Assembly (NCBI GenBank): GCA_018812715.1
Contig: JAHJCT010000024.1
Location: 7,015-71,014 of the forward strand
Direction of reading: 5' to 3'
DNA length: 64,000 bases
From: Candidatus Micrarchaeota archaeon
GTDB taxonomy: Archaea; Micrarchaeota; Micrarchaeia; Anstonellales; Bilamarchaeaceae
Positions within the stretch are counted from its first letter, which is position 1. Every line of letters starts with the position of its first letter. This document shows, piece by piece, positions 1 through 17,803 of the stretch. A program made the translations under genes and the position numbers. The notes beneath the pieces were generated by a model, which was not told the origin of the DNA, did not search any database, and worked only from the letters and a program-made list of their open reading frames with translations.

Positions 1-1612
1 ATAATAACTCTTAATCCAGTTACATTTTTCAATTCAAGAATTGCATCTTTTATTTGTTTTTGATTAAATGAGTTTACTACTCTGACTTCAGCGCCCATTG
101 CTTTTGCCACTTCTTCAATTTTAATTGACTGTACTGCTTCACCTACACCGGTTATACCTGTTCCTGGATTTGGCTGATGGCCCGTCATTGCAGTAAATGA
201 ATTGTCCATTACAATGATTAAAGGAGTTTTATGATCATTAAATTTCAAATTGGCAAGAGCAGACATACCAGAATGGAAAAAAGTTGAATCTCCTATAAAT
301 GCAATTATTTCTTGATCACTAACCATACTAATTCCATGAGATATGCCGAGACTTGCTCCCATACTGACAATAAAATCTTGCATATTGAATGGTTCAAAAA
401 TTCCCAAAACATAGCAGCCAATATCACCGGCAAAAACAGCATTTTCACCAAAAACATCCTTCACTGCATAAAAAGTAGATCTGTGTGGGCAACCTGGACA
501 AAGTACTGGTTTTCGTGGTGGTAAACCTTTTATTGAGACAGTTGTTTGCTTTTTATGTGCTGCAAAGTTTATGCCGCATTTTTTCTTAAAGACTTTTTCA
601 AATGCAGGCATCATTACTTCCAGATTATATTCACCATAATTTGGAAGAAGAGCTTTGCCATGCACAGCAAGTTTTGGATTAACATCTTTTGCCAACATTT
701 TAACTTCATTTTCAACAATTGGCTCAAGTTCTTCTAAGACAAGAACTGCTTTTTTATTTTTAATAAATTGCTTGATGAAATTTCTTGGTGTTGGGTAAGT
801 CAAAGTAAGTTTAGCCATAGGAGGATTGATTCCTAGCATGTGAAACAATTCTTTTGCATACTCAAAACTCACACCAGAAGCAATGACCCCAATGTTTCCT
901 TTTCCTTTGAATACTTTATTGAGTTTAGCATACTTCTTTTCTATTTTGTTCAATTTTCCATCTATTTGCTTATGGAGTTCTTGAAGGTTTGGTCGGATAT
1001 TGTAGTATCTGGATTTATCTTTCACAAATTTGCCTTTTAGTTTTGGTTTTTTTATTTTCCCTAATTTTACAGTGCCAATGGCGTGGCTTACCTTTGTTGT
1101 TGTCCTCAGGAAAAAAGGCAATTCAAATTCTTCTGAAATGTCAAAGGCTAGTTTCGTTAGATCAAGACATTCCTGCGGATTGCTCGGTTCTAGTACTGGC
1201 AGTCTCATCATTCTTGCATAGTACCGGGTATCCTGTTCAGATTGCGCTGAACTCCAGCCATATGGATCATCAGCCACCATCAAAACAAATCCGCCTTTTA
1301 CTCCTGAATAAGCAACAGGTGAAACTGAATCGCTTGCAACATTGAGGCCAAAATGTTTCATTGCAGTTAGTGATCTGACGCCAGACCAGGCTGCTCCTGC
1401 AGCTGTTTCAAATGCAACTTTTTCATTTGACGAATATTCAAATAAGAATCCGCATTCTTTTGCTATCCCAGCAAGGGTGGTTGGAACTTCTGAACTTGGT
1501 GTTCCAGGATAAGCTGCAACAACCCCAACACCTGCTTCAAGTGCTCCTCGTGCAATTGCTTCGTTCCCCAAAAGCACAACATTTTTTCCAGCTTTTTCTA
1601 GAACATTCATGC
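1..1612 (-). CDS. iorA: Indolepyruvate:ferredoxin oxidoreductase alpha subunit (IorA). The start codon is at 1612. The gene runs off the window start, so the C-terminus is missing.
   Basis: The reverse-complement translation starts MNVLEKAGKNVVLLGNEAIARGALEAGVGVVAAYPGTPSSEV. It continues through a TPP-enzyme body and a CPGCPHRSTFYAVK Cys motif. The ORF track missed it because the frame is open at the window edge. Confidence 0.8.
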
Positions 1613-1852
1613 TGATAACTCAGTTTTACTATTTAAAAAATATATCTAGACATGATCGCCACATATAGTAAAAGCTAAAGAAAACAAAAATAGAATCATG
1701 ATTGGTAAGCGCTTCATTCTGCTTGCATAATTCGTGCAAACCAACTACATGCCGGTTTTAATCGGAATCTTTCTTGTGAAGGCACGCAGGTTCAAGGTCA
1801 GCTTATCGAATATTATTATATATTTTAAGGTGTTCGATTCTGATTATCATGT

Positions 1853-2392
1853 ATGTTCAAACTAAAAAGAATTCATACACCAAGGTCAGGACCTAAGATT
1901 GCGAATACTACTAGGTTTGAGCTGCCAGAACCAAAATATGAGATATCATCATCCAAAAATCTGGCACTGGATGCTTCAACCATGCTTCAGCCATACAACA
2001 TGCAAGAGCCAAATCAAAAATCAGAAGCAACAGAAATCTCCAGGTTAAAGATTATTGAGGCTCGGAAAAAACCTGCATGTAAAGGAAAACTCAATGATTT
2101 CCTGGACAAGTATCTGGGTCTAATTATTGGAGTGCCGGTAGTCGCCGCTGGTATTGTTGGTGCGTATCTATCACTAAAATTCAATATTGCCAGTAGCCAC
2201 TTATTCGGTCCAATCCATTCGGAAACAAGGGATGCTATTGGCAATGTTCTCCTCGGGTTTGGGACCGGTGCTCTTGCGATGAATAGTGCAATGCTTACTA
2301 TTCTTTTCGTATCAAGCGGCGTCTCAAAATTGCTCCATAAAAAAGAAACTGGTGTGGAAGGGAAAGAGGGACAATGTAGCGCTTCCGAGTAG
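1853..2392 (+). CDS. Hypothetical small membrane protein with two hydrophobic segments. The start is uncertain.
   Basis: 179-aa ORF with hydrophobic stretches LGLIIGVPVVAAGIVGAYLSL and LLGFGTGALAMNSAMLTILFV. No recognisable motif. Confidence 0.3.
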   Translation: MFKLKRIHTPRSGPKIANTTRFELPEPKYEISSSKNLALDASTMLQPYNMQEPNQKSEATEISRLKIIEARKKPACKGKLNDFLDKYLGLIIGVPVVAAGIVGAYLSLKFNIASSHLFGPIHSETRDAIGNVLLGFGTGALAMNSAMLTILFVSSGVSKLLHKKETGVEGKEGQCSASE

Positions 2393-2595
2393 AATCAATC
2401 ACTTGATCGCAAAAAGGTCGAAAAATTCCACCATTTGAACCGCTCTTGATTTTCAATAATAAGAAATTCATCTCGAAAGATCTTATGGAGTTGTGTAAGA
2501 AAAAAGCCTGGTAAGGGACCTGAACCTCTAGTGCATATCCCTGCTTATTTGGGCAATATGTAGTATTTTTGTATAGCATGTTGACTTTTTTATTT

Positions 2596-3819
2596 CTAGG
2601 CTCTGAGTCTCTTGAATAGATTATCTTTGATTATTTTGACCAAAAATGCGTTTAATTTTGAATCATTTCTCTGTCTGGCCAATTTGGTGAAAGAGAGGTA
2701 TTCCTCTCTCGTATTCGAATAAATATTCATTAATGGAAAACCTTGTTTTAATAGGACATAGTTCCAGATAAGCCTTGTTGTTCTGCTGTTCCCGTCCTCA
2801 AAAGGATGGATATGCTGGAATTCATTATGAACAAAAGTAGCAAATTCGATTATTTCTTTCATTGTATGCTTCTTTGAAATGAAATCGTTTATCTTTTTGC
2901 ATAGTTCATCCAGTTTAGGGAAAATCTCGGAAAAATGTGATACCTTGTAAAACGGATTTCCTTTGATGGAGACACGTGTGGACCTGATGCCTTCTCTAAC
3001 CCCAAGGTTATAGACTATGATCCTGTGGAGGTCCAGGATCAAATCTATAGAAATATCCTGTTCCAGGTGAGAGATGAGATAATTGACTGCATTATAGTAA
3101 TTTTTCACTTCATTGGCTTCTTTCAGTTTTTTGTCCTTTGGAATGATATCGTGGAGGATGAGCTCTCTTGATTCATCCAGAGTAAAGGTGTTGCCCTCCA
3201 ATTGCGTTGATGCAGATGCAAACTCTATCTTCAATTCCTCCTCAACATCTGCGAGGTCGATATCCTTCTTGCGGATTTTTAATTTTTTTAATAATGATTC
3301 TATTTCAAGATAGTCTGATTTTGAAATCGCTACTGTTTGTTTGGATACCTCCGGTTTTTTTAGTCCGGAAAAATCAAGAACATCATCAAAAACCGGATCT
3401 CTCACGAATTTGACTATGAGCGGCTTTTTGGAGATCACGAACAAGAGATTTACTCTATTGAGATAAGTGAGATATTTCCGGACTGTTTTGTAGTTTAGAT
3501 CCTTGAAATCTGAAAGTCTGACTTCCTCTTTGGACAAACCAACAGAGACAATTTTCGCTAATTCCTCGGAGAGAAGTACATTCGGGTTGATACCCTTGTT
3601 TTTGCAGAACTTCATGATTTGAAAGGCTAACCAGGTCCTGGAATTCTCTTTATTTGGCTTATAAGTATTGTCTTCCTGGACTACCAACTCGAGTGCCATT
3701 AACTCCTTCAGCCTTTGTCTGACTGATGATGGCGATGAACCGATAGTTTTTGAGAGTTTGGTAAGCCTGGCCTCTTTGATTTGGAACAGGCCAAAGAGAA
3801 CATCCCACTTTGTTTTCAT
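2596..3819 (-). CDS. Fic/Doc (Fido) family protein with an N-terminal winged-HTH domain. Putative AMPylating toxin or regulator.
   Basis: HPFEDGNSRTTRL matches the Fic core motif HxFx(D/E)GNGRxxR. The N-terminus has an HTH-like segment, SVRQRLKELMALELV. Confidence 0.8.
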   Translation of the reverse strand: MKTKWDVLFGLFQIKEARLTKLSKTIGSSPSSVRQRLKELMALELVVQEDNTYKPNKENSRTWLAFQIMKFCKNKGINPNVLLSEELAKIVSVGLSKEEVRLSDFKDLNYKTVRKYLTYLNRVNLLFVISKKPLIVKFVRDPVFDDVLDFSGLKKPEVSKQTVAISKSDYLEIESLLKKLKIRKKDIDLADVEEELKIEFASASTQLEGNTFTLDESRELILHDIIPKDKKLKEANEVKNYYNAVNYLISHLEQDISIDLILDLHRIIVYNLGVREGIRSTRVSIKGNPFYKVSHFSEIFPKLDELCKKINDFISKKHTMKEIIEFATFVHNEFQHIHPFEDGNSRTTRLIWNYVLLKQGFPLMNIYSNTREEYLSFTKLARQRNDSKLNAFLVKIIKDNLFKRLRA

Positions 3820-3917
3820 GTATAATTAATGGATAAAAAGGTTTATAAAAACTACTATTTTCCATCAAAAGTAAACTTTTATTAACAATCAGTACGTTAT
3901 TGCACTAAAAATAAATA

Positions 3918-3934
3918 AAAGCCGGGTAAGGGCG
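3918..3934 (+). repeat. Copy of the direct-repeat motif aaagccgggtaagggcg. The other copies are at 2503-2518 and 17181-17197.
   Basis: A 15-nt exact match with 17181-17195, and a 14/15 match with aaagcctggtaaggg at 2503-2517. All three are intergenic and in the same orientation. Confidence 0.5.
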
Positions 3935-4064
3935 TCATTCACTTAGCACAAATCCCCGCATTTTCATACAACATCATGCATGTATATGCAATATGTTGCA
4001 TAACTAGTATTTAACTATTTCGTGCCGACAAAAGGGGTATTTACACAAATCAAACAGGGATCAT

Positions 4065-5081
4065 ATGGCTAGAAACTCATTTACCTTTCAGGATTTTCGA
4101 CAAGCTAGATGCTTTGTTAGATTGATATTCAAAGAGTACGGCAAAGCTGGGGGAGAGGTTGGTCATATTGTTTTTGGAGAAGATATGTTAGGAGTAAAAA
4201 CGGAAAACAATGTCCTTTTCATTGAAGGAAACAATTCAGAAGTTGACAAATGGAAAGAAAGATACGAAAATTTCAAACCGACAGAAAGAGAATTCGAGTA
4301 CTATTATCCTTGCTGGTCCATATATGGCCCTTTAAGAGATTCGAAAATTATTGTTGGGGGATATAGTATACTTCCATGTGAAAATCAAGAAGACTATCCA
4401 AGAACTGGAAAATTAATCGTTGCCCTGACTTTCAAAGTGAAAGCATATGATGAGTCTGAGGCGCTTGAGATCGGATACTTTGAGGTTAGAAAAATACTCC
4501 CCATCATCTCCACTTTGCTTGGAGTTTGGATGGGACCAATTGAACGGGCTGTTAGTGGTATGCGGCTTACTAGTATAGGTTCTCTAAATCCAGAAGGCAT
4601 TCATTATAAAATATTGAAAAACACAACAGAATTTTCTGGAGATTCGAAAGGGTGGAGAAAAATTGATGTGGCAAAGGCAAGAAACCTATTTAGTAGGTAT
4701 AGTGAACTTCCAAAACCAAAAAAGGAGAGGTTTGAATCCGCATGTAGAGCGTATAACCTTGCACAACAGTTTTCCGGGATATACCCGGGGTTAGGTGGAG
4801 GTTGCCTTAGGAGTTGTTTAGATACTCTGACATATGGAAAGGCAAGAAATGTCCTAAAAGTAAAGTACAAAGAGGGTAAACTATATTCAGATATTTCGAA
4901 TGTGTTCCATAATGACATTATCCCAGAACATTCCATAAAACACTTTATGGGCCAGACCGAGTTTGAATTGTTCCCTGAAAAGCACATTGAAGATGCAAAT
5001 AGGTTTAAAAAAAGAAAATGGAGGCTGTACGATATTGTTCATCAGGAAATTGAGGAATTTCTAATAGGACATACAGGTTGA
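4065..5081 (+). CDS. Hypothetical protein of 338 aa with no recognisable motif. Cargo gene of the island.
   Basis: Long ORF sitting divergent to fic. No motif recognised by eye. Confidence 0.5.
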   Translation: MARNSFTFQDFRQARCFVRLIFKEYGKAGGEVGHIVFGEDMLGVKTENNVLFIEGNNSEVDKWKERYENFKPTEREFEYYYPCWSIYGPLRDSKIIVGGYSILPCENQEDYPRTGKLIVALTFKVKAYDESEALEIGYFEVRKILPIISTLLGVWMGPIERAVSGMRLTSIGSLNPEGIHYKILKNTTEFSGDSKGWRKIDVAKARNLFSRYSELPKPKKERFESACRAYNLAQQFSGIYPGLGGGCLRSCLDTLTYGKARNVLKVKYKEGKLYSDISNVFHNDIIPEHSIKHFMGQTEFELFPEKHIEDANRFKKRKWRLYDIVHQEIEEFLIGHTG

Positions 5082-5097
5082 AAACATTACAAAAATA

Positions 5098-5814
5098 TCA
5101 GGAGACGATTATACCTCCTTTTTCCCTTATCGCTTGATAAATTTTTATAAGGTCTCCAGCCGTAACAGATTTACAGTTAGTTGCTATCCTTCCATCTTTT
5201 GAGATGCTAATTGAGATATGTTCTCCATCATCTGTTTTCATTTCAATTGCAAGTGCAGTGGTATTTTTTGGATCGTAGGTAGGCGCTTGATGGACATTCA
5301 CACCAAATTCAGCTCGAACTTTAACTTCCCCTTCATTTACATCAGCCCACGATCCCCAGACATTGATGCAATCAATAGCTTGATAAATTTTTTCTAAATC
5401 GAAAGAGATTCTATTCATCTTGACTAGTTTTGTTTCTTCTAGCCTCTTGTTGAATTGTTTAGATATTTCTTTTGTTGCAGCGCAAATCAAAACTTGATCT
5501 TTATCATTTTTTATCGCCCAAAAGCGATAGACCTTTTGGTAGCCCCCCTCATGATATTTTGCAAATTCTTCTCCTTCGGGGCAAAATCTGATAGTTTCCT
5601 TGATAGTATCACTATAGTGAATGATATCAAAGGAGGCACCATCCTGAGTTTTTTTTACAAGCTTAATTTTCGTTACTGGAGTCCCAAGTTTATCTCCCAA
5701 TCCATATTCAGATGCTAGATCTTGTTGAAGAGGAAGAACCACTTCCCCACGTTTTTCTATAATTGATTCTAAATCAAATTTTTCTATAGCGAAAATTGAA
5801 ATTGCAATTCCCAT
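5098..5814 (-). CDS. Hypothetical protein of 238 aa. Second gene of a two-gene cassette.
   Basis: ORF on the minus strand, 4 nt downstream of the 5819-6490 ORF on the same strand. No motif recognised. Confidence 0.5.
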   Translation of the reverse strand: MGIAISIFAIEKFDLESIIEKRGEVVLPLQQDLASEYGLGDKLGTPVTKIKLVKKTQDGASFDIIHYSDTIKETIRFCPEGEEFAKYHEGGYQKVYRFWAIKNDKDQVLICAATKEISKQFNKRLEETKLVKMNRISFDLEKIYQAIDCINVWGSWADVNEGEVKVRAEFGVNVHQAPTYDPKNTTALAIEMKTDDGEHISISISKDGRIATNCKSVTAGDLIKIYQAIREKGGIIVS

Positions 5815-5818
5815 AAGC

Positions 5819-6490
5819 TCACCAAATTTTTAATAACACCCCTAGCTGCTCTCTCATTTCGGAAAAATTAATTGCTGATAGGGCAGTTTCAGTTTTAGAA
5901 AATCGTATTGAAGATGCATTATCCTTAGATTGAACGATTTGGAGTCTGTCTAAGGTATATCCGGAAAATTTCGGATGATATAGTTCGCACCAATACTTCG
6001 GCAAAAAGAGATTGATGTTAATGGAAGTAAGAGACACATTTGCAATTGACATAAGTCTTTCAGACTTAGAAGCTAGTTTGTTGAAGTCCATTATAACTGA
6101 GGATATACCAGTATTAATTTCGGTTGTTTCAAAATGGACATGGTCATCCCCAAGATAATGGAAGAGATAATTTATGGACCCGTCTTGAATTTCAATCTTA
6201 TTTTTTGCTATAATATTTTTTCTAAACTTTGTTCCGAATTCTTTCGAGAAAAATGTGACCATCTTGTTCTGAAAAGAGGGAAAATCCATTGATAGATTAT
6301 AGTCAATGATTACTCGCATTCTTATAGGGGCGTTTGATAATTTTGCAACTGCTTTCCTAAATTTATTGACGATTTTTAAATTGTGTTCAACTATTATAGG
6401 GATAACTATGGAAGCTGTCCATATGAGAACATCAATTCCATTTTTCAGAAGCACATCTTCTGAAGGTAATTCCATAAAATATTGATACAC
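5819..6490 (-). CDS. Hypothetical protein of 223 aa. First gene of the two-gene cassette.
   Basis: ORF. It forms a tight operon with 5098-5814. Confidence 0.5.
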   Translation of the reverse strand: MYQYFMELPSEDVLLKNGIDVLIWTASIVIPIIVEHNLKIVNKFRKAVAKLSNAPIRMRVIIDYNLSMDFPSFQNKMVTFFSKEFGTKFRKNIIAKNKIEIQDGSINYLFHYLGDDHVHFETTEINTGISSVIMDFNKLASKSERLMSIANVSLTSININLFLPKYWCELYHPKFSGYTLDRLQIVQSKDNASSIRFSKTETALSAINFSEMREQLGVLLKIW

Positions 6491-6601
6491 AGAATATTTG
6501 TTATTTCTATCATTTATTGTAACTAGGATACAACATGTTGCACAAATGAATAAATCGTGTTGAAACCATCAACTTATCATGTTAGGATTTGAGGTGATAA
6601 G

Positions 6602-6907
6602 TTGGTATTCAAACGTCTGATTCTGCTTCTCCTGGCGGGAAGCCTGGCCTTTGCTGAGTTCAGCATCCCTGCTGATCAGCCCATATGCAACCTATACGGG
6701 ATGCTCAAGACATTTGGGACTGTCGTAGGCGTCCTTGTAGCTGCCTATGCTGGCTTCATGATAGCGAGCGTTACGGACCTGAAGGAGCGCAATGATGCCA
6801 AGGCCCTTCTGGGAGGTGTGGCAGTCGGTCTGATAGTGATCTGGATAGCTCCTTTGGTTATAACAAACCTCGTAGGAGCAGATAGCGTCTGCGGGTGGAC
6901 TTCCTGA
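6602..6907 (+). CDS. Small secreted or membrane protein with VirB2/TrbC-pilin-like topology (signal peptide plus two TM helices).
   Basis: Signal-peptide-like MVFKRLILLLLAGSLAFA, then two TM segments separated by a charged loop (DLKERNDAKA), with Cys near both ends. GC is much higher than in the flanking DNA. Confidence 0.45.
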   Translation: MVFKRLILLLLAGSLAFAEFSIPADQPICNLYGMLKTFGTVVGVLVAAYAGFMIASVTDLKERNDAKALLGGVAVGLIVIWIAPLVITNLVGADSVCGWTS

Positions 6908-7128
6908 TTGACCTTATTGGCATTTCTTCTGCCATAAAGTCGATAGCTATCTTTTTCTCAGTCATTATCCTAAGCTATGCAGGGATTGTCCTCATAACTA
7001 GCAAAGACCCGGTCTCAAGAAACGAATGGAAAGAAATTGCCAAGGGGGTCTTAATCGGCATTTCCGTCCTATTTCTTGGCCCAGTCATCTCTTCAGCACT
7101 TACAGGAGGTGGATATTGTGGTCCTTAG
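6895..7128 (+). CDS. Small two-TM hairpin membrane protein (VirB2/VirB3-like?). It starts at a GTG that overlaps the previous gene's stop.
   Basis: 77-aa ORF with two hydrophobic helices. It overlaps the upstream ORF by 13 nt, consistent with operon arrangement. Confidence 0.4.
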   Translation: MDFLIDLIGISSAIKSIAIFFSVIILSYAGIVLITSKDPVSRNEWKEIAKGVLIGISVLFLGPVISSALTGGGYCGP

Positions 7129-7942
7129 GCAGTTGGTCCTCTTTTTTGCCCTTGTTTCCATATCCGCAGCCTATCAATACCATGACTATGTGAAGGAAGG
7201 CAACTATCACGGTCCGGCATTGGTAAACGATTCCCTTCTAGACGACTGCCGTTTCCTTGAAGTGCCAGAAGTCATATGCAATACTACTGAAAGCGGAAAC
7301 CTGACGAAAGAGCAGGGGCGGCAGTTGATTCTCGATACATTGAATCCATCGATATCCGGCCTAGAATATAGGTTTTTCGAGCAACTGGATACGAAAGTCA
7401 AGAGCTCCCTGATGTTCAGAGTCATTGAGTTTGAGCCATATTCCAAAGACGAGCTGAAATCCCTTCTTCAGGTGGTCGCAAAAAGGACCCTGCTGGAAGA
7501 TTCCTGCGATAGCGAGGTATTGGGCAAAGTTGCCGAGCTCGGGGCATCCAATGAAGGAAACGCTCGATTCGCCATTTGGCTGCTTTTTTCCGCTGCCAAA
7601 GATGCCGAGGAGAGGAATTCCGAAAAGATAGAACTAGATGATGTTGTTAAGGCATACGAAAGGCTTGTCCCAATAAGAGCGCAAAACCAGAATGAAACCG
7701 GACTTTGCGAGGAGGAGCTGCTAATCCTGGATCTTCTGAAAGAAGGGGAGAAAGAATCATCCGAGATTTACGAGATAGTTCAGAAGAGGATAAATCGGTC
7801 AAAACGCCAGATTCGTAATTATCTCAGTTCTTTGGCCCAGAAGGGCCATATTAAGGGCCAGGAATTCGAGGGTACAAATTCAATGCTTAAACCAAAAGTG
7901 TATCGAGTTTGCCAGAGGAGATTGAATGAGGTTTACGATTAA
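7076..7942 (+). pseudogene. Orc1/Cdc6 C-terminal fragment (sensor, lid and winged-helix region). The Walker A and Walker B motifs are missing. A GTG at 7118 preceded by GGAGGTGG is a plausible start.
   Basis: EQLDTKVKSSLMFRVIEFEPYSKDELKSLL aligns with KLDTRIRSSLRFSEMEFKHYSEEELISIL of the intact Orc1 at 47043-48092. KRQIRNYLSSLAQKGHIKGQEFEG..LKPKVYRV aligns with KRQIRNYLDLLEKKGIIESEKFEADGILRPKVFRL of the same protein. No GxxGxGKT motif is present. Confidence 0.6.
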
Positions 7943-8170
7943 GAGAAATGTACGGACTTTCATTCGAAATTATGGCATGAGGTTGGAGGCCGGACTTATC
8001 GGAGAGCTTGAGAGTATGATTGAAAAAAAGCTATCTCGGGCCATTGAAAGGGCAAAGAGAAATGGCCGGACGACCATAAAAAATCATGATATATAAAAAT
8101 CTCATTATAATAAACCACTTAAATTTATTCTGGTTTTATTTAAAGGACGCTGATCTCAATCGTGATGGTA

Positions 8171-9700
8171 ATGGCTAAAGACAACGGAGCTAATTTAGGG
8201 TTTGAACAGAAACTCTGGCAGGCAGCAGACAAGATGAGAAACAATATGGACGCTGCCGAATACAAGCATGTAGTCCTTGGCTTGATTTTCCTCAAATATA
8301 TTTCTGATGCTTTTGAAGAGAAGCACAAGAAGCTTCTGGCAGAGAAAGCACAAGGAGCAGATCCCGAAGACCCTGATGAGTACAGGGCTGAAAATATCTT
8401 CTGGGTTCCCAAAGAAGCAAGATGGCATTATCTACAAGATAACGCAAAACAACCAACAGTTGGCAAGCTAATTGATGATGCCATGGATGCAATAGAGCGG
8501 GATAATCCCTCTCTAAAGGTTGTTTTGCCCAAGAATTACGCCCGCCCCGCCCTTGATAAACAACGATTAGGAGAACTAATCGATTTGATAGGAACAATCG
8601 GCTTGGGCGATTCGGAAAACCGCTCAAAGGATATTCTGGGCCGGGTATACGAGTATTTCCTCGGCCAGTTCGCCGATGCTGAAGGAAAGAAAGGAGGCCA
8701 ATTCTATACTCCGAGAAGCATTGTCAAGCTTCTTGTAGAAATGCTTGAACCATATAAAGGAAGGATCTATGACCCCTGCTGCGGCTCAGGCGGCATGTTT
8801 GTTCAGAGTGAAAAATTCATAGAAGCCCATGGTGGAAAACTTGGGGACATTTCCATATATGGGCAAGAGTCCAACCAGACCACCTGGAGATTATGCAAAA
8901 TGAATCTGGCGATCAGAGGCATTGACGCAAATATCCAATGGGGAGATAGTTTTCACAATGACCTTCAGAAGGATCTGAAGGCGGATTTCATCATAGCAAA
9001 TCCTCCGTTCAATGTCAGCGACTGGAAAGGAGAGCTTTTGAGGGATGATGTAAGGTGGAAATACGGGGTTCCACCGTCTGGAAACGCCAACTTCGCATGG
9101 GTCCAGCATTTCGTTCATCATCTATCACCAACAGGAATAGCCGGATTCGTATTGGCTAACGGTTCCATGTCCTCTAATACCTCTGGGGAAGGGGAAATTC
9201 GGAAGAGCCTGATTGAAGCAGATGTAGTGGACTGCATGGTCGCTTTGCCAGGTCAGCTTTTCTATAACACGATGATTCCGGCCTGCCTTTGGTTTACGGC
9301 AAGGGACAAGAAAAACCATAAGTTCAGGGACCGGAGGGGCGAAGTGCTATTCATAGATGCACGAAACATGGGCGTCATGGTCGACCGAAGACATAAGGAG
9401 CTCACAGATGAAGACGTCCAGAAGATCGCTTCAACTTATCATGCCTGGAGAGGCGAAGGGGGCAAGTATGAGGATGTCAAAGGCTTCTGCAAGTCGGCCA
9501 AGCTTGATGAAATAAGGAAGCATGGCTATATCTTGACTCCTGGACGCTATGTCGGTGCTGAGGAAGCAGAAGAGGATACGGAACCTTTCGATGAGAAAAT
9601 GAAGCGGCTGACGGGCGAGCTTTCGGAGCAGTTCAGTAAGTCTAAGGAACTTGAAGATGAAATAAGAAAGAATTTAGACGGGTTAGGGTGGAGAGTGTAA
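8171..9700 (+). CDS. hsdM: Type I restriction-modification N6-adenine DNA methyltransferase subunit (HsdM).
   Basis: NPPF motif in [16 protein letters not shown]-terminal HsdM_N-like segment [34 protein letters not shown]. The ORF is drawn from 8162 but the likely start is MAKDNG at 8171. Confidence 0.9.
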
Positions 9701-9703
9701 AGG

Positions 9704-10618
9704 ATGGAATTAGTGCCTAGGGGGTTATTTAATGAGAGAAAAGGTACTGCACAATCAGGAAAGGATTATTTTACCCGAGATATCAGAACTAAAATCTTAA
9801 TGTTGTTTGATGATTTTGATCTAAACCACTTAGACACTTCTTCTGTTGTAGTAGTAGGCGGAAGTTATCGGAATTCCTGTTTAAGGCTAATGAAATCTAA
9901 GTTAAAATATTTGGTAGACCTGGGACATATTGATAAGTTTGAGGAATTTTTCTTAAGTTGTACTCTTAATGAGCTTCTCTCATGTGTCGAGTTGTATACT
10001 AAATGTATGGAGGAAATAATATCGAGGTATGAACAACATGAACGAACCAAACTATATAGTCGAGGTTATGATACTAGTCAACTCCTAGTAACTTTTGTTA
10101 AATCATTCAATAATTTATTGGCTTACCATAAAATCCCATATCACTTTGTTTACAATGATGTATTAGATAAACTGTTTATTGAAAAACAGTTTAATGAAGT
10201 GGAAGAAGAGGTCAAAGAGAAAATTTACGAAATAATCAAAAATGAGCCCAAGATTAATGAATATTTTACGCAATCTTTAGGGGATTATGCCAAAAGGGAA
10301 TATAAAGTTTCTATAGAAAATGCGTACTTAACTCTAGAAAAATATCTTAAAGTTAAAACCAAAAATCACAACTTGGATGCTGTAAGAAATTTTGTAGAAT
10401 TTCAAAAGAAATACTCATTCAATGAAAAAGGAATATTCTCTGTTAGGCCCGATATAATCAAAAACAAGATTTCGCTAATTTACTCTATTAGAAGCGAACT
10501 AAAATCCCATTCCGATAGGGAAACTTTTGATACTAATAAATTTTTGGAAGAGACAGCTAAGTTCCAATTAAACGAAGTTATGAATTGTATACTTATATTA
10601 GAGGACTTGAGTAAATGA
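9704..10618 (+). CDS. Hypothetical 304-aa protein embedded between hsdM and hsdS. Markedly AT-rich.
   Basis: Its ATG lies 3 nt after the hsdM stop. Its stop overlaps the hsdS ATG as ATGA. GC is about 30-33% against about 47% for hsdM and hsdR. No Walker A or other motif seen. Confidence 0.6.
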   Translation: MELVPRGLFNERKGTAQSGKDYFTRDIRTKILMLFDDFDLNHLDTSSVVVVGGSYRNSCLRLMKSKLKYLVDLGHIDKFEEFFLSCTLNELLSCVELYTKCMEEIISRYEQHERTKLYSRGYDTSQLLVTFVKSFNNLLAYHKIPYHFVYNDVLDKLFIEKQFNEVEEEVKEKIYEIIKNEPKINEYFTQSLGDYAKREYKVSIENAYLTLEKYLKVKTKNHNLDAVRNFVEFQKKYSFNEKGIFSVRPDIIKNKISLIYSIRSELKSHSDRETFDTNKFLEETAKFQLNEVMNCILILEDLSK

Positions 10619-11940
10619 AGAACACACATCTAAAAGAAACCGAAATCGGAGAAATCCCTGAAGAGTGGCAATTGAAAAGGGTAGATGAGATTGCAGTCAT
10701 AAACGAAGCTGCTGTAGGTAAAAAATATCAATGTGAAGAAATTGAGTATATAGATATAGATTCTGTAGAAGAAGGCCAAATAAAAACTGTTAAAAAAATG
10801 AAATTGGCAGAAGCACCGAGCAGAGCAAAACGAATTGTTAAGAAAAACGACATTTTGATCTCCACAGTAAGGCCCAATCTGAAGCATTATGCCTTTATCT
10901 CAGCAGCAAAACCAAATACGGTAGCTTCCACTGGATTTGCAGTAATATCCGCAAAAGGCATAGACCCGAGGTTTCTCTATTATTGTTTAACTACGCAGAA
11001 ATATACGAATTACCTTTCTGCGATTGCAGATGCGCATACCTCAACATACCCTTCATTTAACCCAGATATTATAGAGAATTCAAATATTCCTTATCCGCCC
11101 ATTCCAGAACAACATATCATCGCCAAAATCCTTTCCGATTTGGACGCCAAAATCGAACTAAACCGCCAAATGAACCAAACCTTGGAACAAATCGGTGAGG
11201 CCCTTTTCAAGCGCTGGTTCGTTGATTTCGAATTCCCTAATGAGGAAGGCAAGCCGTACAAATCAAGCGGCGGGGAGATGGTGGATTCGGAGCTGGGGGA
11301 GATACCAAAGGGGTGGAATGCGAGTAAATTGGGGGAACACGTATCTATGGTTAGGGGTTGTTCTTATTCTAGTGCAGGATTAAAGGATTCGGAAAATGCT
11401 TTAGTTACGTTGAAATCAATTGAACGTGGAGGCGGATTCAAGACTGAGGGATTCAAGCCCTATATTGGTGAGTTTAAGGATAAGCATATTGTAAAAAACG
11501 GTGAAATAATTGTAGCACACACTGATTTAACACAAAATGCCGAAGTTCTTGGTAAGCCTGCGATAGTTCGGGAAGTACCTTATTTCAATAAATTAATCGC
11601 ATCCATGGATTTAGGGATTATTAGGCCAACTGACGATAGGGCATCTAATCCATTTTTGTACTATCTTTTGAAGTCTGATCAATTCCAAAATCATGCCTAT
11701 GGGTATGCGAGTGGAACAACAGTATTGCATCTAAGCAGTAAAGCCATTCCTGATTTTCAATTTATTTTGGCGAGAAAAGAAGTAATCACCCGTTTTACTC
11801 AAATCGTAGAAAAGTTAACTATGAAAATTCAGTACAACTTTTCAGAAGCAGAAAATCTTGAAAAGATTCGAGATACCCTCCTCCCAAAGCTCATGTCCGG
11901 ACAGATAAGGGTAAAAATCCCCAAAGAGAGTGCTAACTGA
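10615..11940 (+). CDS. hsdS: Type I R-M specificity subunit (HsdS) with two target-recognition domains.
   Basis: Conserved central region [23 protein letters not shown] and C-terminal region [12 protein letters not shown]. Two variable TRD-like halves. Its end overlaps the hsdR start (ATG at 11940). Confidence 0.85.
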
Positions 11941-14900
11941 TGGATCACGCTATAACCGAATCAGAAACCGAAGAACTTGCCCTTCAGACACTCGCAAAGC
12001 TGGGCTACAAGGTGATTTTTGGTCCGAATATAGCTCCAGACGGCCCAAACCCAGAAAGGGGTTCATATTCCGATGTTGTGCTTGTCGAAAGGCTCAAGGC
12101 AGCAGTTCAGAAGATAAACCCGACCATTCCAGCCGAAGTCCGGGAAGAGGCGATAAAGAAGGTCCTCAGGACAGAAAGCCCGAAGCTCATAGTCAATAAC
12201 CACAATTTCCACAAAATGCTTGTTGAGGGCGTAAACGTAGAATACCGTCAAAAAGGCGCCATCAGAGGAGACAAGGTCTGGCTTTTTGATTACAAGAGGC
12301 CGGAAAACAACGAATTTCTTGCAGTCAACCAGTTTACAGTCATAGAAAACAACAACAACCGCAGGCCAGACATCGTTTTATTCGTGAACGGGCTTCCTTT
12401 GGTAGTAATCGAACTGAAAAATCCTGCTGACGAAAACGCAACCATAAGAACTGCCTTTAACCAGTTTCAGACATACAAGGTCCAGATCCCATCATTGTTC
12501 AGTTATAACGCATTTCTGATTATCAGCGATGGCTTTGACGCCCGGGCAGGAACGATTACCTCCGAATGGGAACGCTTCATGCCCTGGAAAACGATTGAGG
12601 GCAAAGCCAAGGCCCCTATCACCTCTCCATTGATGGAGGTTCTTATCCTTGGAATGTTCAACAAACCATTTTTCCTAGATCTTATCCGCCATTTCATCGT
12701 ATTCGAAAAGGAACACCACAAATATTCTAAGAAACTCGCTGCATACCATCAATACCATGCAGTAAATCGGGCCATTGGATCAACCCGAGGCGCTCTCAAA
12801 GGGGATAAACGGTGCGGCATTGTATGGCATACCCAAGGCTCAGGAAAGAGCCTTACTATGGCCTTCTACACTGGGAAGCTCATCCTTGCCCTGGATAACC
12901 CCACAATAGTCGTCCTTACTGACCGTAATGATCTTGACGACCAGCTTTTCCAGACTTACAGCAGATGCCAGGAGTTGCTCAGGCAGAAGCCAGTCCAGGC
13001 CGAATCAAGAAAAAGCCTTAAAACCCTGCTTAAAGTTGCATCTGGCGGCGTTGTCTTTACTACAATCCAGAAATTCTTCCCTGAAGGCAAAGGAGACAAA
13101 TTCCCGCTTCTATCTGAACGGCGCAATATCGTTGTAATCGCAGACGAGGCCCATAGGAGCCAGTATGACTTTATCGATGGTTTTGCCAAGCATATGAGGG
13201 ACGCTCTTCCGAATGCTTCTTTCATAGGATTTACCGGAACCCCGATTGAAAAGGCGGATAGAAGCACTCCGGCGGTTTTTGGGAACTGTATTGACATTTA
13301 CGATATAGAACAGGCAGTTACAGATGGCAACACAGTCAGGATTTTCTACGAAAGCAGGCTCGCAAAGCTTGAACTCAAGGAAACTGAAAGGCCAAAAATA
13401 GATCCTGAGTTTGAGGAAATTACCGAAGGGGAAGAGGTCTCCCATAAGGAACGGTTGAAAAGCAAATGGGCCAGGCTTGAAGCCGTCGTTGGAAGTGAAA
13501 AGAGAATAAAACGCATAGCAAAGGATATTGTTACTCATTTTGAGAAACGGCAGGAAATCCTCGAAGGAAAAGGAATCATAGTGGCTATGAGCCGTAGAAT
13601 TTGTATTGACCTTTATAAGGAAATTAGAAAGCTGAGGCCGGAATGGTGCCACAAAGACGATGAAAATGGCAGTCTAAAGGTAATCATGACTGGCTCGGCA
13701 ACCGATCCGGTGAGTTGGCAAGAGCACATTAGGAATACTACCAGGAGACGTGCTCTGGGCGACCGTTTCAAGAATCCTGAAGATCCAATAAAGCTTGTCA
13801 TTGTAAGGGACATGTGGCTTACTGGCTTTGATGTGCCAAGCCTTCATACGATGTACCTTGACAAACCTATGCGGGGACATGGGCTGATGCAGGCAATAGC
13901 CAGAGTAAACCGTGTATTCAGGGACAAGCCCGGTGGGCTGATTGTTGATTACATAGGAGTTGCTGACGACCTTCGAAAGGCGTTGTCTGAATATACTGAA
14001 AGCGGAGGAAAAGGAAAACCTGTCTTTGATCAGGAAGAAGCAGTTGCGGCGATGCTGGAGAAATACGAAATAGTAACTTCAATGCTCCATGGCTTCGAAT
14101 ACCAGCGCTTTTTCAAGGCAGGAACAAGCCAAAAGATGTCAATTATCCTTGAAGCAGAAGAATTTGTATCAATGCAACCTGAAGGCAAAGAGCGCTTCAT
14201 AAAAAACGTTTCCCTTCTTTCCAAGGCCTTTGCACTGGCCGCTCCTCATGAAGAAGCACTCAAGTTAAGGGATGACCTTGCATTTTTCCAAGCCGTTAAA
14301 GCAAGGCTTTCTAAATTCAGGGAAATGGCTGGTAAGCCAGAGGAAGAACTTGACACCGCAATACGGCAGATTGTATCAAAAGCCATAGTGTCCGATAAAG
14401 TCGTTGATATCTTCCAGGCGGCAGGGCTAAGAAAACCTGATATTTCAATACTTTCAGATGAGTTTTTAGCCGAAGTCAAAGGGATGAGACATAAAAACCT
14501 AGCCTTTGAACTGCTGAAAAAGTTGCTAAATGACGAACTTAACTCCAGAAGCAGGAAAAATCTTATCCAATCCCGTTCATTTGCAGCTTTGCTGGAAAAG
14601 ACCATCAAGAAATATCAAACCAGGGCTATCGATTCAGCAGAAATCATTGAGGAGTTAATAGACCTTGCCAAGGATATACGGGAAGCCGATAAACGGGGGG
14701 AAGAATTAGGGCTTTCTTCTGATGAAATTGCGTTTTATGATGCGCTTGAAGTCAATGATAGCGCAGTAAAGGTTCTTGGCGATGAAACGCTTAGAACGAT
14801 TGCCCGCGAACTTGTGAAAATGGTCAAAGCTAACGCAAGCATAGACTGGACTTTGAGGGAGAATGTCAAGGCCGCTATGCGGGTTGCCGTAAAACGCATA

Positions 14901-15002
14901 CTTAGGAAATATGGTTATCCCCCTGATAAGCAGGAGTCAGCGACTCAGACAGTCATTAAACAGGCTGAACTTCTTGCGGACAGCTGGACCGTTGGAGCAT
15001 AA
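11940..15002 (+). CDS. hsdR: Type I restriction enzyme R subunit (HsdR). SF2 helicase plus nuclease.
   Basis: Walker [17 protein letters not shown] box [10 protein letters not shown] and helicase C-terminal motifs. 1020 aa. Confidence 0.9.
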
Positions 15003-15132: not shown

Positions 15133-15957
15133 TTATTTTGTGCTGAGCTGGGAGATGATGCCTGGGAGCTCGTTTCTGGTAATGGTTTTTCCGAATTTTT
15201 CGTAGTTTCGTTTTTCCCTCCAGCCAGTTACTACTATGTAGAAATCTGAGTACTGGGCCCTTACTGCATCAAACTTGGCTATATGGGCCTCATTGGAATA
15301 GCCCCTGAAATTTTCCCCAGTTTCCACTTCAAAAGCGATTTTTTCCTTTTTGATTGAAACAACGATATCTCCCGGCTGGGTGGTCTTCATATCAACTGTT
15401 TTGAAACGCTCCTTCAGCATATAGTAAATCATCCAACAAAAGAAGGCATGTCTCGGGCTCTCCCTATTCCTCCTTTTCACCAAATGCCAGGCAGAACCTC
15501 CAAACTGTCCTAAACGGTCCTTATGGAGAGCATAGCCATTCTCTACCAAGTACGTTATCTCCTCTTCAGTCAGGCCGTCTTTCTGGTAAATCCCCTTCTT
15601 CAAGTCAATCTTTGGCACAGACTTTTTTTCAACCGGATTCTGAGGCCTTGGCGTCTCCTTTGGATGGGTCGTTATTATCTCATGAAGTTTCTCGGAGGAC
15701 TTGACAAAGAACTTGTGGGAATCGTGCTCAGTAATGACCAAGCCAAAGCCACTCGGAGCTGTAAGAAGATAGTTTTTGGCCGGATCATTGAGCTTGAGGG
15801 TATTAGAAATCAGGTCTATATTCGTGGGATTCTGCCTCATCAATATCTTAACCGAGGCAGTATTGAGGATGGAACGTCCCGCCTTGCTTCTTAGCAAATC
15901 CTCAATCTCCTGGGTGATAAAGCCTATCGAGGCATTGAACTTCCTTGAGGTCTTCAC
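15133..15957 (-). pseudogene. 5'-truncated VirB4/TrbE-like conjugative ATPase C-terminal fragment fused to a C-terminal domain of unknown, possibly nuclease-like, function.
   Basis: ASIGFITQEIEDLLRSKAGRSILNTASVKILMRQN...NTLKLND...GFGLVITEHDSHKFF matches the VirB4/TrbE C-terminal pattern (ATQS..D......TKI.L.N...LGLN....GL......F). The frame stays open upstream to about 16093 with no ATG, and it overlaps the integrase 3' end. The track start is a GTG. Confidence 0.5.
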
Positions 15958-16028: not shown

Positions 16029-17069
16029 TCAGGAGATTTCTGAAATCGTCATCCGATATGTCCTCTTCCTCGGGCCATAGACGTCAAGGATGGCATTATC
16101 GACGTCCCTTCCGCTGAGGTGGACATAGACGCTGGCCATATCCGAGCCCTGAACCCAGCCGAAATACTCCTTCATCTGGGCCTCGGTAAGCTTGTTGGCC
16201 AGGGCGGTGGCCCTGGAATGGCGGAAAAGGTGTGGTGTGATCTTCTTCTTGATGCCCGCTTTTACGGCTACGTCGCAGATAATCCGTTTGGTAACCGAAT
16301 AATGGAGCGGAAGCGTGTCCATCGCCTTACGGTCCAGGTATCTTGACCAGAGATAGGCCTCAGGGTCATCCTTGTAGGGGTGGAAATCCATCCAGAGGGC
16401 AAGGGCCGGGGCAGAAGCGACTAGCCTTATCCTCCGGTCCCCAGTCTTGCCAGTAACCCTTATTATGGCCCCAAAATCGTCGAATTCGACGTTTTTTAGC
16501 TGGATTGTGAGCAATTCCATTATCCTGCATCCGCTCTCATAGAGGACCTGAATCATAGCCTTATCCCGGGGCTTGGTGGCAGCATCGGCCATCCGCTTTA
16601 TCTCATCCTCGGAGATAAGCTCTTCGGGAAGCTTGACCAGGCGCTCCTTGACATGGCACTTAATCCAGCGGACTTCATCTGGATAATCCTCGTCGTTGCC
16701 CTTGAACCATTTGAAGAACCTCTTGATGAGAATCTTCCGGTCAGCCTTGGTCCAGGCCTTCAAATCGCTAGTCTCGACCTTTCCCACGAGCTCCAGAAGG
16801 TCCTTCTTCGTAACCTTGGCAAATGGTTTTCCGAAATTACGGGAGAACCAGCTCAGATTACCGAGGTATTTGAGCCTCCTCAGCCTTCCCAGCCCGATAG
16901 AGGCAATATAGGAGTCGAACTCCAGAATCAGCTTCTTATTCGCTGGAATGACGCTTTTATCATTCCGCAATGACTCCAGCCGGGTCTCTAGCCTTCGGGC
17001 CGTATTCTTCAAATCACACTTCACATCCATCACCTTCGTTTCCAGTCTTTTTACCGTTTTATGCAACAT
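16029..17069 (-). CDS. int: Tyrosine recombinase/integrase, XerC/XerA-like. Intact.
   Basis: C-terminal catalytic region HLFRHSRATALANKL...YVHLSGRDV, consistent with an R..H..R..Y catalytic tetrad. 346 aa. It sits next to a tRNA gene. Confidence 0.8.
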   Translation of the reverse strand: MLHKTVKRLETKVMDVKCDLKNTARRLETRLESLRNDKSVIPANKKLILEFDSYIASIGLGRLRRLKYLGNLSWFSRNFGKPFAKVTKKDLLELVGKVETSDLKAWTKADRKILIKRFFKWFKGNDEDYPDEVRWIKCHVKERLVKLPEELISEDEIKRMADAATKPRDKAMIQVLYESGCRIMELLTIQLKNVEFDDFGAIIRVTGKTGDRRIRLVASAPALALWMDFHPYKDDPEAYLWSRYLDRKAMDTLPLHYSVTKRIICDVAVKAGIKKKITPHLFRHSRATALANKLTEAQMKEYFGWVQGSDMASVYVHLSGRDVDNAILDVYGPRKRTYRMTISEIS

Positions 17070-17533
17070 ATTGCACGAAAGGCGAGGATGCGATCCGCCA
17101 AAACGGCGTATCGGCCCAGGAACCCGCAGCCTGTTATAAAAAGCGGCGGCGTGTTGCCTAGGGAGTTGCGTTAAAAGAATAAAGCCGGGTAAGGGAGTTG
17201 TTCAAACTTCTGATCGATGTGCCTTTTGATCAAACTTTTGGCATTTGTTTACACAGGTCAAAAGTTTGTTGAACCCCTCTATGCCGCTTTCTACCCCCAG
17301 TTTTTGGGGCGCCTTTCCCGATTGAAACAAAGTTTCAATGGGCACCTTGAACGCAAAGCGTTCAATTGTGTTCCTAAAAAGGTGCACTGCAGGCGGCCGC
17401 ATAGCCGATCTGCCAACCCGGCTTGTGTGTAATTAAAGAAAGTTGCATTTTTAAATGATATCAGGCAAAGTCTCATAACATTTCTGAACTTGTTTCAGGA
17501 AAATAAACCAACCTTAGAATGACATAAGGAAAT

Positions 17534-17647
17534 GGGCCCGTAGCTCAGCTTGGTAGAGCGTCGGACTTTTAATCCGCAGGTCGAGGGTTCGAATCCAAGC
17601 TTTTGAAAAAGCTTGATCAAAACTTGGCGTTTATCCCTCCGGGCCCG
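17534..17647 (+). tRNA. tRNA-Lys(TTT) interrupted by a 40-nt intron in the T-arm, at about 17595-17634. The exons fold into a perfect cloverleaf.
   Basis: Exon 1 reads GGGCCCG-TA-GCTC-AGCTTGGTA-GAGC-G-TCGGA-CTTTTAA-TCCGC-AGGTC-GAGGG-TTCGAAT. After the 40-nt insert, exon 2 reads CCCTC-CGGGCCC-G. The acceptor stem and T-stem are perfectly complementary only across the insert. Confidence 0.8.
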
Positions 17648-17803
17648 ATCTTCTTTTCTTTTGAAACTTGTTTCAATCTAAGACCCCACCTTATTATGAA
17701 ATATAAACTTTTGTCAGCATATTTGTTGGTAATGAAGTTTTTGGCATTTGGTAGTGGAAACGGAGCCGGCCAAAGAAAAAAGCCATTCAAAAATAAGACA
17801 ATT

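Follow-up and report, generated by a model that had tools for sequence, protein, structure and literature searches.

Three neighbouring open reading frames (ORFs), here called ORF338, ORF238 and ORF223, lie at positions 4065–6490 of a 64,000-nucleotide (nt) stretch of DNA from Candidatus Micrarchaeota archaeon (assembly GCA_018812715.1, contig JAHJCT010000024.1, positions 7,015 to 71,014 of the forward strand), referred to below as the window. All three products are annotated in this Candidatus Micrarchaeota metagenome-assembled genome (MAG), on a contig of 81 kb, and the genes have in their neighbourhood a fic gene, restriction-modification (R-M) genes and an integrase. The three genes, with protein lengths in amino acids (aa) and predicted isoelectric points (pI), are arranged as follows:

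4065–5081, plus strand: ORF338, ATG start (MBU0532637.1, KKB44_04035); soluble, pI 8.7, no known domain
5098–5814, minus strand: ORF238, ATG start (MBU0532638.1, KKB44_04040); 238 aa, soluble, pI 5.9, second gene of a two-gene operon
5819–6490, minus strand: ORF223, GTG start (MBU0532639.1, KKB44_04045); pI 9.0, first gene of the operon
5815–5823, minus strand: operon junction, consisting of the ORF223 TGA, 4 nt, and the ORF238 ATG

ORF338 is divergent from fic (2596–3819, minus strand) and convergent with ORF238, the two stop codons being 16 nt apart. NCBI places the start of ORF223 at an internal ATG at 6475, giving a protein of 218 aa, and this is probably the true start. Directly upstream of the ORF238 ATG, and overlapping the ORF223 stop codon, lies a Shine–Dalgarno-like GGTGA, which together with the 4-nt gap suggests that ORF223 and ORF238 form a translationally coupled operon. 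Codon log-likelihood scores, trained on 24 long host genes within the window, were 0.169, 0.300 and 0.129 bits/codon for the annotated frames of ORF338, ORF238 and ORF223, respectively, against a host-gene mean of 0.309 (standard deviation 0.054). As the annotated frame is the sole positive frame of six in each ORF, the others scoring -0.2 to -0.9, all three are real coding sequences. The layout given in a preliminary description of this DNA, including the strands, the 4-nt spacing, the divergence from fic and the convergence of ORF338 with the operon, is confirmed by the coordinates.

ORF223 contains a single, marginal hydrophobic segment (residues 18–36), with acidic residues before it and a lysine/arginine-rich stretch after it, an arrangement compatible with a putative single-pass membrane anchor in an N-out orientation. 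ORF238 carries the nine-residue motif DLxKIYQAI twice (residues 139–147 and 221–229), 82 residues apart, and this repetition is visible in the DNA as an 18-nt repeat at 5129 and 5375. An internal duplication within ORF238 was considered and rejected, as this motif is the sole shared part and the similarity is not significant (z = 2.0).

Searches for known families returned nothing for any of the three proteins. There was no match at E ≤ 1 nearing the cutoff in Pfam, PADLOC, NCBIfam or PHROGs; PADLOC-DB 2.0 gave 0 families at E ≤ 1, both for the three proteins and for the two ORF338 relatives described below; and phmmer found no match in the PDB. Searches of plasmids and phages by tblastn produced nothing credible, a Streptococcus phage match to ORF238 (E = 0.03) being taken as noise, and in a word-indexed search of 5.8 billion proteins each of the three retrieved only itself. 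Two IMG/VR ‘relatives’ of ORF238 (L001 and L002) were dismissed as chance matches, to a 692-aa terminase-like ORF with only the seed octapeptide in common. No helix-turn-helix (HTH), ribbon-helix-helix (RHH) or toxin family was found in ORF238 or ORF223 with Pfam and NCBIfam, and no paralogy was found between ORF338 and ORF304 (an orphan of the neighbouring element), between ORF238 and ORF223, or between ORF238 and the RAZR-like protein discussed below. The earlier statement that the three genes lack a recognisable motif is thus borne out, and annotation as metabolic enzymes, which the preliminary description had named as counting against it, was obtained for none of them, nor does any match a known structural family.

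ORF338 belongs to a small family. An exhaustive HMMER scan of 1.84 billion representative proteins found only two relatives: P0004 (MEW6721993.1, from another Micrarchaeota MAG; 339 aa, 33% identity, E = 1e-42) and P0005 (375 aa, 37% identity, E = 8e-39). The three proteins can be aligned over their full length; their N-terminal and central-insert regions vary, and a charged core is conserved. Invariant blocks are FKPxExE..YYPC (residues 70–83) and FK..AYD..EA...GY...RK.LP.IST (123–150), and further invariant residues are E224, C227, R228, R249, S278, H282, D284 and E288. The many invariant positions in this three-way alignment imply that ORF338 is a real protein under purifying selection. Neither the relatives nor the family profile matched anything in Pfam, PADLOC or the PDB, and the profile found nothing further in the PDB, in metagenome contigs or in viral contigs.

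The contexts of both relatives are informative. P0004 is flanked by GPI plus a small ORF and, in the opposite direction, by TrkA/TrkH; it has a G+C content (GC) of 0.413 compared with 0.58 in its genome, and is bracketed by a 25-nt exact direct repeat, AAAATAGCCCCGAGCGGATTCGAAC, that equals the 3' end of tRNA-Gln; the tRNA-Gln(CTG) gene from which the repeat derives is 22 nt downstream. P0004 is therefore the sole gene of an integrated islet of ~1.1 kb. The islet (L082 1646–2833) is also flanked by a second, hairpin-like repeat of 26 nt (1554–1579 and 2776–2801), and no integrase is present. Consistent housekeeping contexts, which the preliminary description had likewise named as counting against it, are not seen for the homologues of ORF338: the lone one with such neighbours, P0004, is a foreign, low-GC insertion at a tRNA gene.

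P0005 is convergent with, and 6 nt from, a gene for a 229-aa protein with a zinc ribbon and a DUF4145 domain (L083 1532–2221, minus strand), which matches the PADLOC model PD-T7-4 (RAZR) at 2.4e-10. Both genes have a GC of 0.355, compared with 0.46–0.51 in their flanks; relatives of ORF338 are thus strongly atypical in GC within their own hosts, unlike the three ORFs of the window. To our knowledge, RAZR has so far been studied in bacteria. The contig that carries P0005 looks archaeal, as a putative RFC-like (replication factor C) gene, so assigned from our own reading of the sequence, adjoins the RAZR-like gene. The architecture and function of RAZR as an abortive-infection RNase have been described (PMC13017515), and DUF4145 has been assigned to the HEPN superfamily (PMC3710099). 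As in the window, where ORF338 is convergent with a gene of similar size, P0005 is convergent with a gene encoding ~230 aa; neither ORF238 nor the ORF338 family, however, is similar to the RAZR-like protein (hhalign probability of 0.2% for the family profile against the DUF4145 neighbour). RAZR is a single-gene system, so its adjacency to P0005 may reflect only a common islet.

Relatives of ORF238 and ORF223 are absent from the contexts of both P0004 and P0005. Since these two genes occur without such partners, ORF338 is independent of the ORF223–ORF238 operon and a stand-alone, horizontally moving gene. The treatment of the three genes as one unit in the preliminary description is hence abandoned.

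An assignment of ORF338 to the HEPN-domain abortive-infection proteins, which are Rx4-6H RNases (PMC3710099), was also rejected. ORF338 resembles these in its helical C-terminal region and in a single Rx5H string, RLYDIVH (residues 320–326). This string aligns to HSFGVAY and DSAKIVK in the homologues, so the arginine and histidine are conserved in neither, and there is no HEPN-clan match in Pfam.

The block containing the three genes is bordered by repeated sequences that resemble attachment (att) sites, together with a related palindrome:

2502–2583, plus strand: second 83-nt att-like copy, downstream of fic, with core AAAAGCCTGGTAAGGG and a left flank resembling the integrase-proximal copy
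3917–3998, plus strand: att-like unit of ~83 nt upstream of ORF338, with core AAAAGCCGGGTAAGGG, an arm and the palindrome TGCAATATGTTGCA (3987–4000)
6528–6541, minus strand: palindrome-like 14-mer GCAACATGTTGTAT, about 40–50 nt upstream of ORF223
17158–17205, plus strand: integrase-proximal att-like copy, core at 17180–17195
17386–17422, plus strand: 37-nt block identical in metagenome contig L084, an alternative right end of the element (break at 17422/17423)

The shared 16-mer, WAAAGCCKGGTAAGGG, occurs at 2502, 3917 and 17180, always on the plus strand, making three copies against 0.01 expected. Similarity extends beyond it: z = 6.7 for 2502–2583 against 3917–3998, z = 10.3 for the left flank of the 2502 copy against 17158–17196, and z = 7.8 for the 3917 unit against 17165–17205. 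A 17-nt sequence bearing the palindrome, TGCAATATGTTGCATAA, is identical at 3987–4003 and, on the minus strand, at 17058–17074, where it precedes the probable integrase start (VMDVKCD) by ~35 nt. The 14-mer class GCAAYATGTTGYAT has four sites in the 64 kb (2553, 3988, 6528 and 17061), compared with 0.12 expected, and all of them are in the island. A sister integrase on metagenome contig L084, with 67% nucleotide identity, is followed by 27 nt identical to the core region at 17178–17204.

Between window positions 17128–17422 and L084 1840–2140, the blocks that are 100% identical (26–37 nt) are 17178–17204, 17265–17290 and 17386–17422. Near 17310 there is a perfect 8-bp hairpin, ATTGAAAC/GTTTCAAT. 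Rfam identified no RNA family in the conserved blocks up to 17422, and a reading of the 37-nt block as the 5' half of a tRNA-Cys, made by us from the sequence, was not supported by Rfam. Just beyond lies a tRNA-Lys(UUU) gene (17534–17648, plus strand) whose T-arm is interrupted by a non-canonical intron of 40 nt (about 17597–17636); it was missed by ARAGORN even with the intron option and scores 34.3 bits with Rfam, while removal of the 40 nt gives a canonical 76-nt call. Integration of the element into this adjacent tRNA-Lys was rejected, as there is no partial tRNA copy elsewhere in the window.

The remaining features of the locus, from fic to the integrase, are:

2596–3819, minus strand: winged-HTH Fic gene, divergent from ORF338 and between the two 83-nt units; Pfam Fic 1.6e-14, PADLOC PDC-S04/SoFic 1e-29
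6602–7128, plus strand: two VirB2/TrbC-like pilin genes, where the high-GC fragment of a conjugative-type backbone begins
7076–7942, plus strand: chimeric ORF, in which residues 18–89 match the large post-pilin protein at its N-terminus and residues 99–278 match Cdc6/Orc1 in its C-terminal half
8162–15002, plus strand: type I R-M system (hsdM, orphan ORF304, hsdS, hsdR)
15133–15957, minus strand: TraG/VirD4-like fragment without ~180 N-terminal residues
16029–17069, minus strand: tyrosine integrase (Phage_integrase 1.3e-18)

The Fic neighbour and the R-M element noted in the preliminary description are therefore real, the latter comprising hsdM, hsdS and hsdR together with a tyrosine integrase. 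So is its high-GC character, GC stepping at ~6500–6600 from 0.33–0.38 on the left to 0.45–0.52 on the right. The chimeric ORF and the shortened TraG are deletion scars, and the conjugative backbone is now non-functional.

Some features of the surroundings stand apart from the three genes. The fic gene sits between two direct copies of the 83-nt unit (2502–3998) in a cassette-like arrangement. ORF304 (9704–10618, plus strand), between hsdM and hsdS, has a GC of 0.31 and no family match; no relative was found in the sister loci, and it holds an unverified Rx5H string, RSELKSH. ORF179 (1853–2392, plus strand) is a further orphan with no family match, with a strong hydrophobic segment (residues 83–110), and is placed between a host IorA-like gene (1–1613, minus strand, running off the start of the window) and the first att-like unit.

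Micrarchaeota carry many members of the integrase family, often several per genome. Across 79 integrase loci (L003–L081; 1.18 Mb), pilins, Cdc6, TraG and Fic recur beside related integrases, and in two of them (L016 and L020) Fic genes are found directly upstream. ORF338, ORF238, ORF223, ORF304 and ORF179 have no relatives in these loci. Intact relatives of the element (L013, L023 and L025) carry, on one strand, the integrase gene, a gene for a protein of ~280 aa, pilin 1, pilin 2, a large protein and a multi-transmembrane (multi-TM) protein. In the family that these exemplify (L013 9881–20886, L023 9971–17362 and L025 9989–20945) this module is conserved, the large protein is ATPase-like, and Cdc6/Orc1 and TraG are also present. 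The ~280-aa gene next to the pilins is a highly conserved orphan DNA methyltransferase. In the window the exact end of the backbone is marked by the GC step that precedes pilin 1, and the pilin block is inverted relative to the integrase gene. Because the backbone stops there and the intact elements have a methyltransferase at the equivalent position, the three ORFs are not diverged backbone, and the idea that ORF223 and ORF238 are such genes was discarded.

Taken together, the repeats and genes are most simply read as a tandem array, running att, fic, att, ORF338, and so on through the pilins and R-M genes to the integrase and a last att. The repeats and the palindrome link the promoter regions of ORF338 and ORF223 with the integrase end, and in such an array promoters close to an att copy would have an operator in common with the integrase gene. 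If so, the three genes do not lie between fic and the element, as the preliminary description had it, but probably inside the array, as copies of the repeat (2502, 3917 and 17180) stand on either side of fic and of the stretch running from ORF338 to the integrase. The proposed explanation, to which a probability of roughly 0.6 is given, is that ORF338 and the ORF223–ORF238 operon are two independent units of accessory cargo, carried at the end farthest from the integrase in an array of integrated conjugative-type elements that is mosaic and has decayed. The three ORFs are best explained as lineage-restricted genes, belonging neither to the housekeeping set of the host nor to the backbone of the element. 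A site-specific recombinase is present at one end and the genes are absent from the backbone of sister elements; cargo status is established for the ORF338 family and probable for the operon. Direct repeats would bound the block: the core is present in three copies against 0.01 expected, the extended units score z = 6.7–10.3 and the core recurs in L084, yet the L084 homology runs on to 17422. Whichever right end is correct, the ORF338–ORF223 block has at its flanks sequences found elsewhere only at the integrase end.

Several observations weigh against this explanation. The homology to L084 does not end at 17195 but persists as far as 17422, where it breaks off abruptly; the right junction may therefore differ from the one assumed, and there is no second copy of the 17386–17422 block within the window. 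Instead of being a crossover core, the repeated motif might serve as an arm or in regulation, and the flanks of the 6528 palindrome show only weak similarity (z = 3–4). No empty site or syntenic genome was found, nor any host-flank genes in the 79 integrase loci. In composition the three ORFs are close to the host: their GC of 0.33–0.38 compares with 0.36–0.375, the backbone alone being GC-rich. This, together with the codon usage of ORF238, which is fully that of the host, also fits host DNA trapped between elements. The argument from association draws on three contexts in the case of ORF338 and a single one in that of the operon, and the failure to find a relative of ORF238 or ORF223 is that of the word-indexed search, so distant ones may exist. 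Single-sequence AlphaFold2 models had a mean predicted local distance difference test (pLDDT) score of 31 for ORF338 and 36 for ORF238 and were unusable. Finally, no homology, motif or structure demonstrates a function for any of the three ORFs.

Of the alternatives, the one advanced in the preliminary description is that ORF223–ORF238 is a toxin-antitoxin (TA) or two-component anti-phage system, with all three genes as cargo of a defence island that shields the host or the element from viruses. The Fic (PDC-S04/SoFic) and type I R-M neighbours favour this, as do the tight, translation-coupled operon, the RAZR-like gene adjoining one ORF338 relative, and the pairing of a putative membrane anchor with a soluble partner, which recalls sensor/effector pairs. 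Two-gene systems of membrane and soluble proteins, such as Kiwa-like pairs, are known in defence. ORF223–ORF238 is alike in being tightly coupled, on a mobile element and with one putative anchor; ORF223, however, has a single marginal TM segment and is not multi-pass. The TA reading fits poorly: at 218–223 aa and 238 aa, both proteins exceed 215 aa, whereas type II TA proteins are roughly below 150 aa, there is no HTH, RHH, AbrB or other DNA-binding antitoxin domain, and no TA model matches. None of the three proteins matches PADLOC, Pfam or NCBIfam, the Rx5H motif of ORF338 is not conserved, and the components do not co-occur across genomes, since the pair is conserved nowhere else and the relatives of ORF338 lack it. 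What stands of the defence-island claim is that the genes are uncharacterised and cargo-like, among genes of conflict and mobility; assignment to defence itself has the neighbourhood in its favour and no model match, and is regarded as unlikely.

Similarly doubtful is the proposal that the three are orphan genes of the host lineage, the region 3820–6600 being ordinary chromosomal DNA amid mobile-element debris, with functions in the symbiont lifestyle or at the cell surface. This would account for the host-like GC beside a backbone at 0.45–0.52, for the sharp step where that backbone starts, and for an ORF238 codon score (0.300) that equals the host mean, codon usage and GC by codon position in ORF238 being indistinguishable from those of host genes; it also draws on the ambiguous right-end boundary of the element. 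Three observations stand against it: the integrase end is the one other place where sequences like the att units of 2502 and 3917 and the 6528 palindrome are found; foreign, low-GC insertions carry the ORF338 relatives in two other genomes; and relatives are lacking in other Micrarchaeota genomes despite many MAGs.

A role in conjugation or entry exclusion, with a membrane-anchored ORF223 acting with ORF238 in mating-pair formation or in surface or entry exclusion, is very unlikely. ORF223 is the immediate neighbour of the VirB2-like pilin genes, diverges from them and has a putative anchor, and exclusion proteins of bacterial conjugative plasmids are typically poorly conserved. The intact sister elements, however, hold a methyltransferase at that place and no relatives of ORF223 or ORF238, the GC is unlike that of the backbone, and the backbone here is truncated and non-functional. 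That the ORFs are non-functional remnants or spurious, decaying with the element, is hardly credible: although the surrounding element has decayed (chimeric Cdc6 ORF, truncated TraG), ORF238 and ORF223 lack relatives and AlphaFold gave no confident fold, all three have a strong single-frame coding signal and are intact at 218–338 aa in a genome of 37% GC with frequent stop codons, ORF338 is 33–37% identical across three genomes with invariant motifs, and the operon junction is Shine–Dalgarno-coupled.

The cargo explanation can be set beside known elements. Integrated conjugative elements of archaea, with VirB2-like pilins, have been reported in Sulfolobales and Nitrososphaeria, without mention of DPANN (PMC9905601). 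The element in the window is like these in having a tyrosine integrase at one end, VirB2/TrbC-like pilins, a TraG-like ATPase, Cdc6/Orc1, end repeats, and variable cargo that includes R-M and Fic. It differs in that its host is a DPANN archaeon (Micrarchaeota), its backbone is truncated and rearranged, its att site contains no recognisable tRNA, and its cargo lacks relatives in sister elements. The P0004 islet is exactly of the type known as tRNA-associated islets with a direct repeat of the tRNA 3' end (GC 0.41 against 0.58); unlike it, with its ~1.1 kb, one gene and no integrase, the window has repeats that are not tRNA-derived. Compared with known defence, TA and HEPN systems the three genes do not conform, and compared with mobile cargo they conform wholly or in part: they are orphan passengers.

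Under the cargo explanation, the genes would be passengers or leftovers of site-specific integration events. Through the palindrome that they share with the integrase, if it is an operator, they would be regulated together with it. Their likeliest role would be in genetic conflict (defence, exclusion or counter-defence), with ORF338 as a stand-alone effector, while ORF223, basic and probably membrane-anchored, could form a two-protein, membrane-associated module with the acidic, soluble ORF238. The three proteins cannot be given a catalytic mechanism, and an actual function in defence or exclusion is judged rather unlikely. A bolder version, put forward tentatively and thought improbable, would have ORF338 founding an archaea-only (Micrarchaeota) family of stand-alone conflict effectors spread as single-gene tRNA islets, and/or ORF223/ORF238 forming a new DPANN membrane-associated immunity or exclusion module, with the palindromic operator of the integrase controlling both.

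The genomes of DPANN archaea are tiny, these organisms rely on hosts, and the ways in which they deal with viruses and plasmids are poorly known. Should one of the three genes turn out to act in defence or exclusion, it would represent a new archaea-specific family; as it stands, they are well-documented orphan cargo on a decaying integrated element. A by-product of the analysis is that an abundant, integrase-associated family of conjugation-type elements in Micrarchaeota has been made visible. The ORF338 family, in turn, one member of which is the only gene of an islet at a tRNA, lends itself as a simple natural experiment to tests of function.

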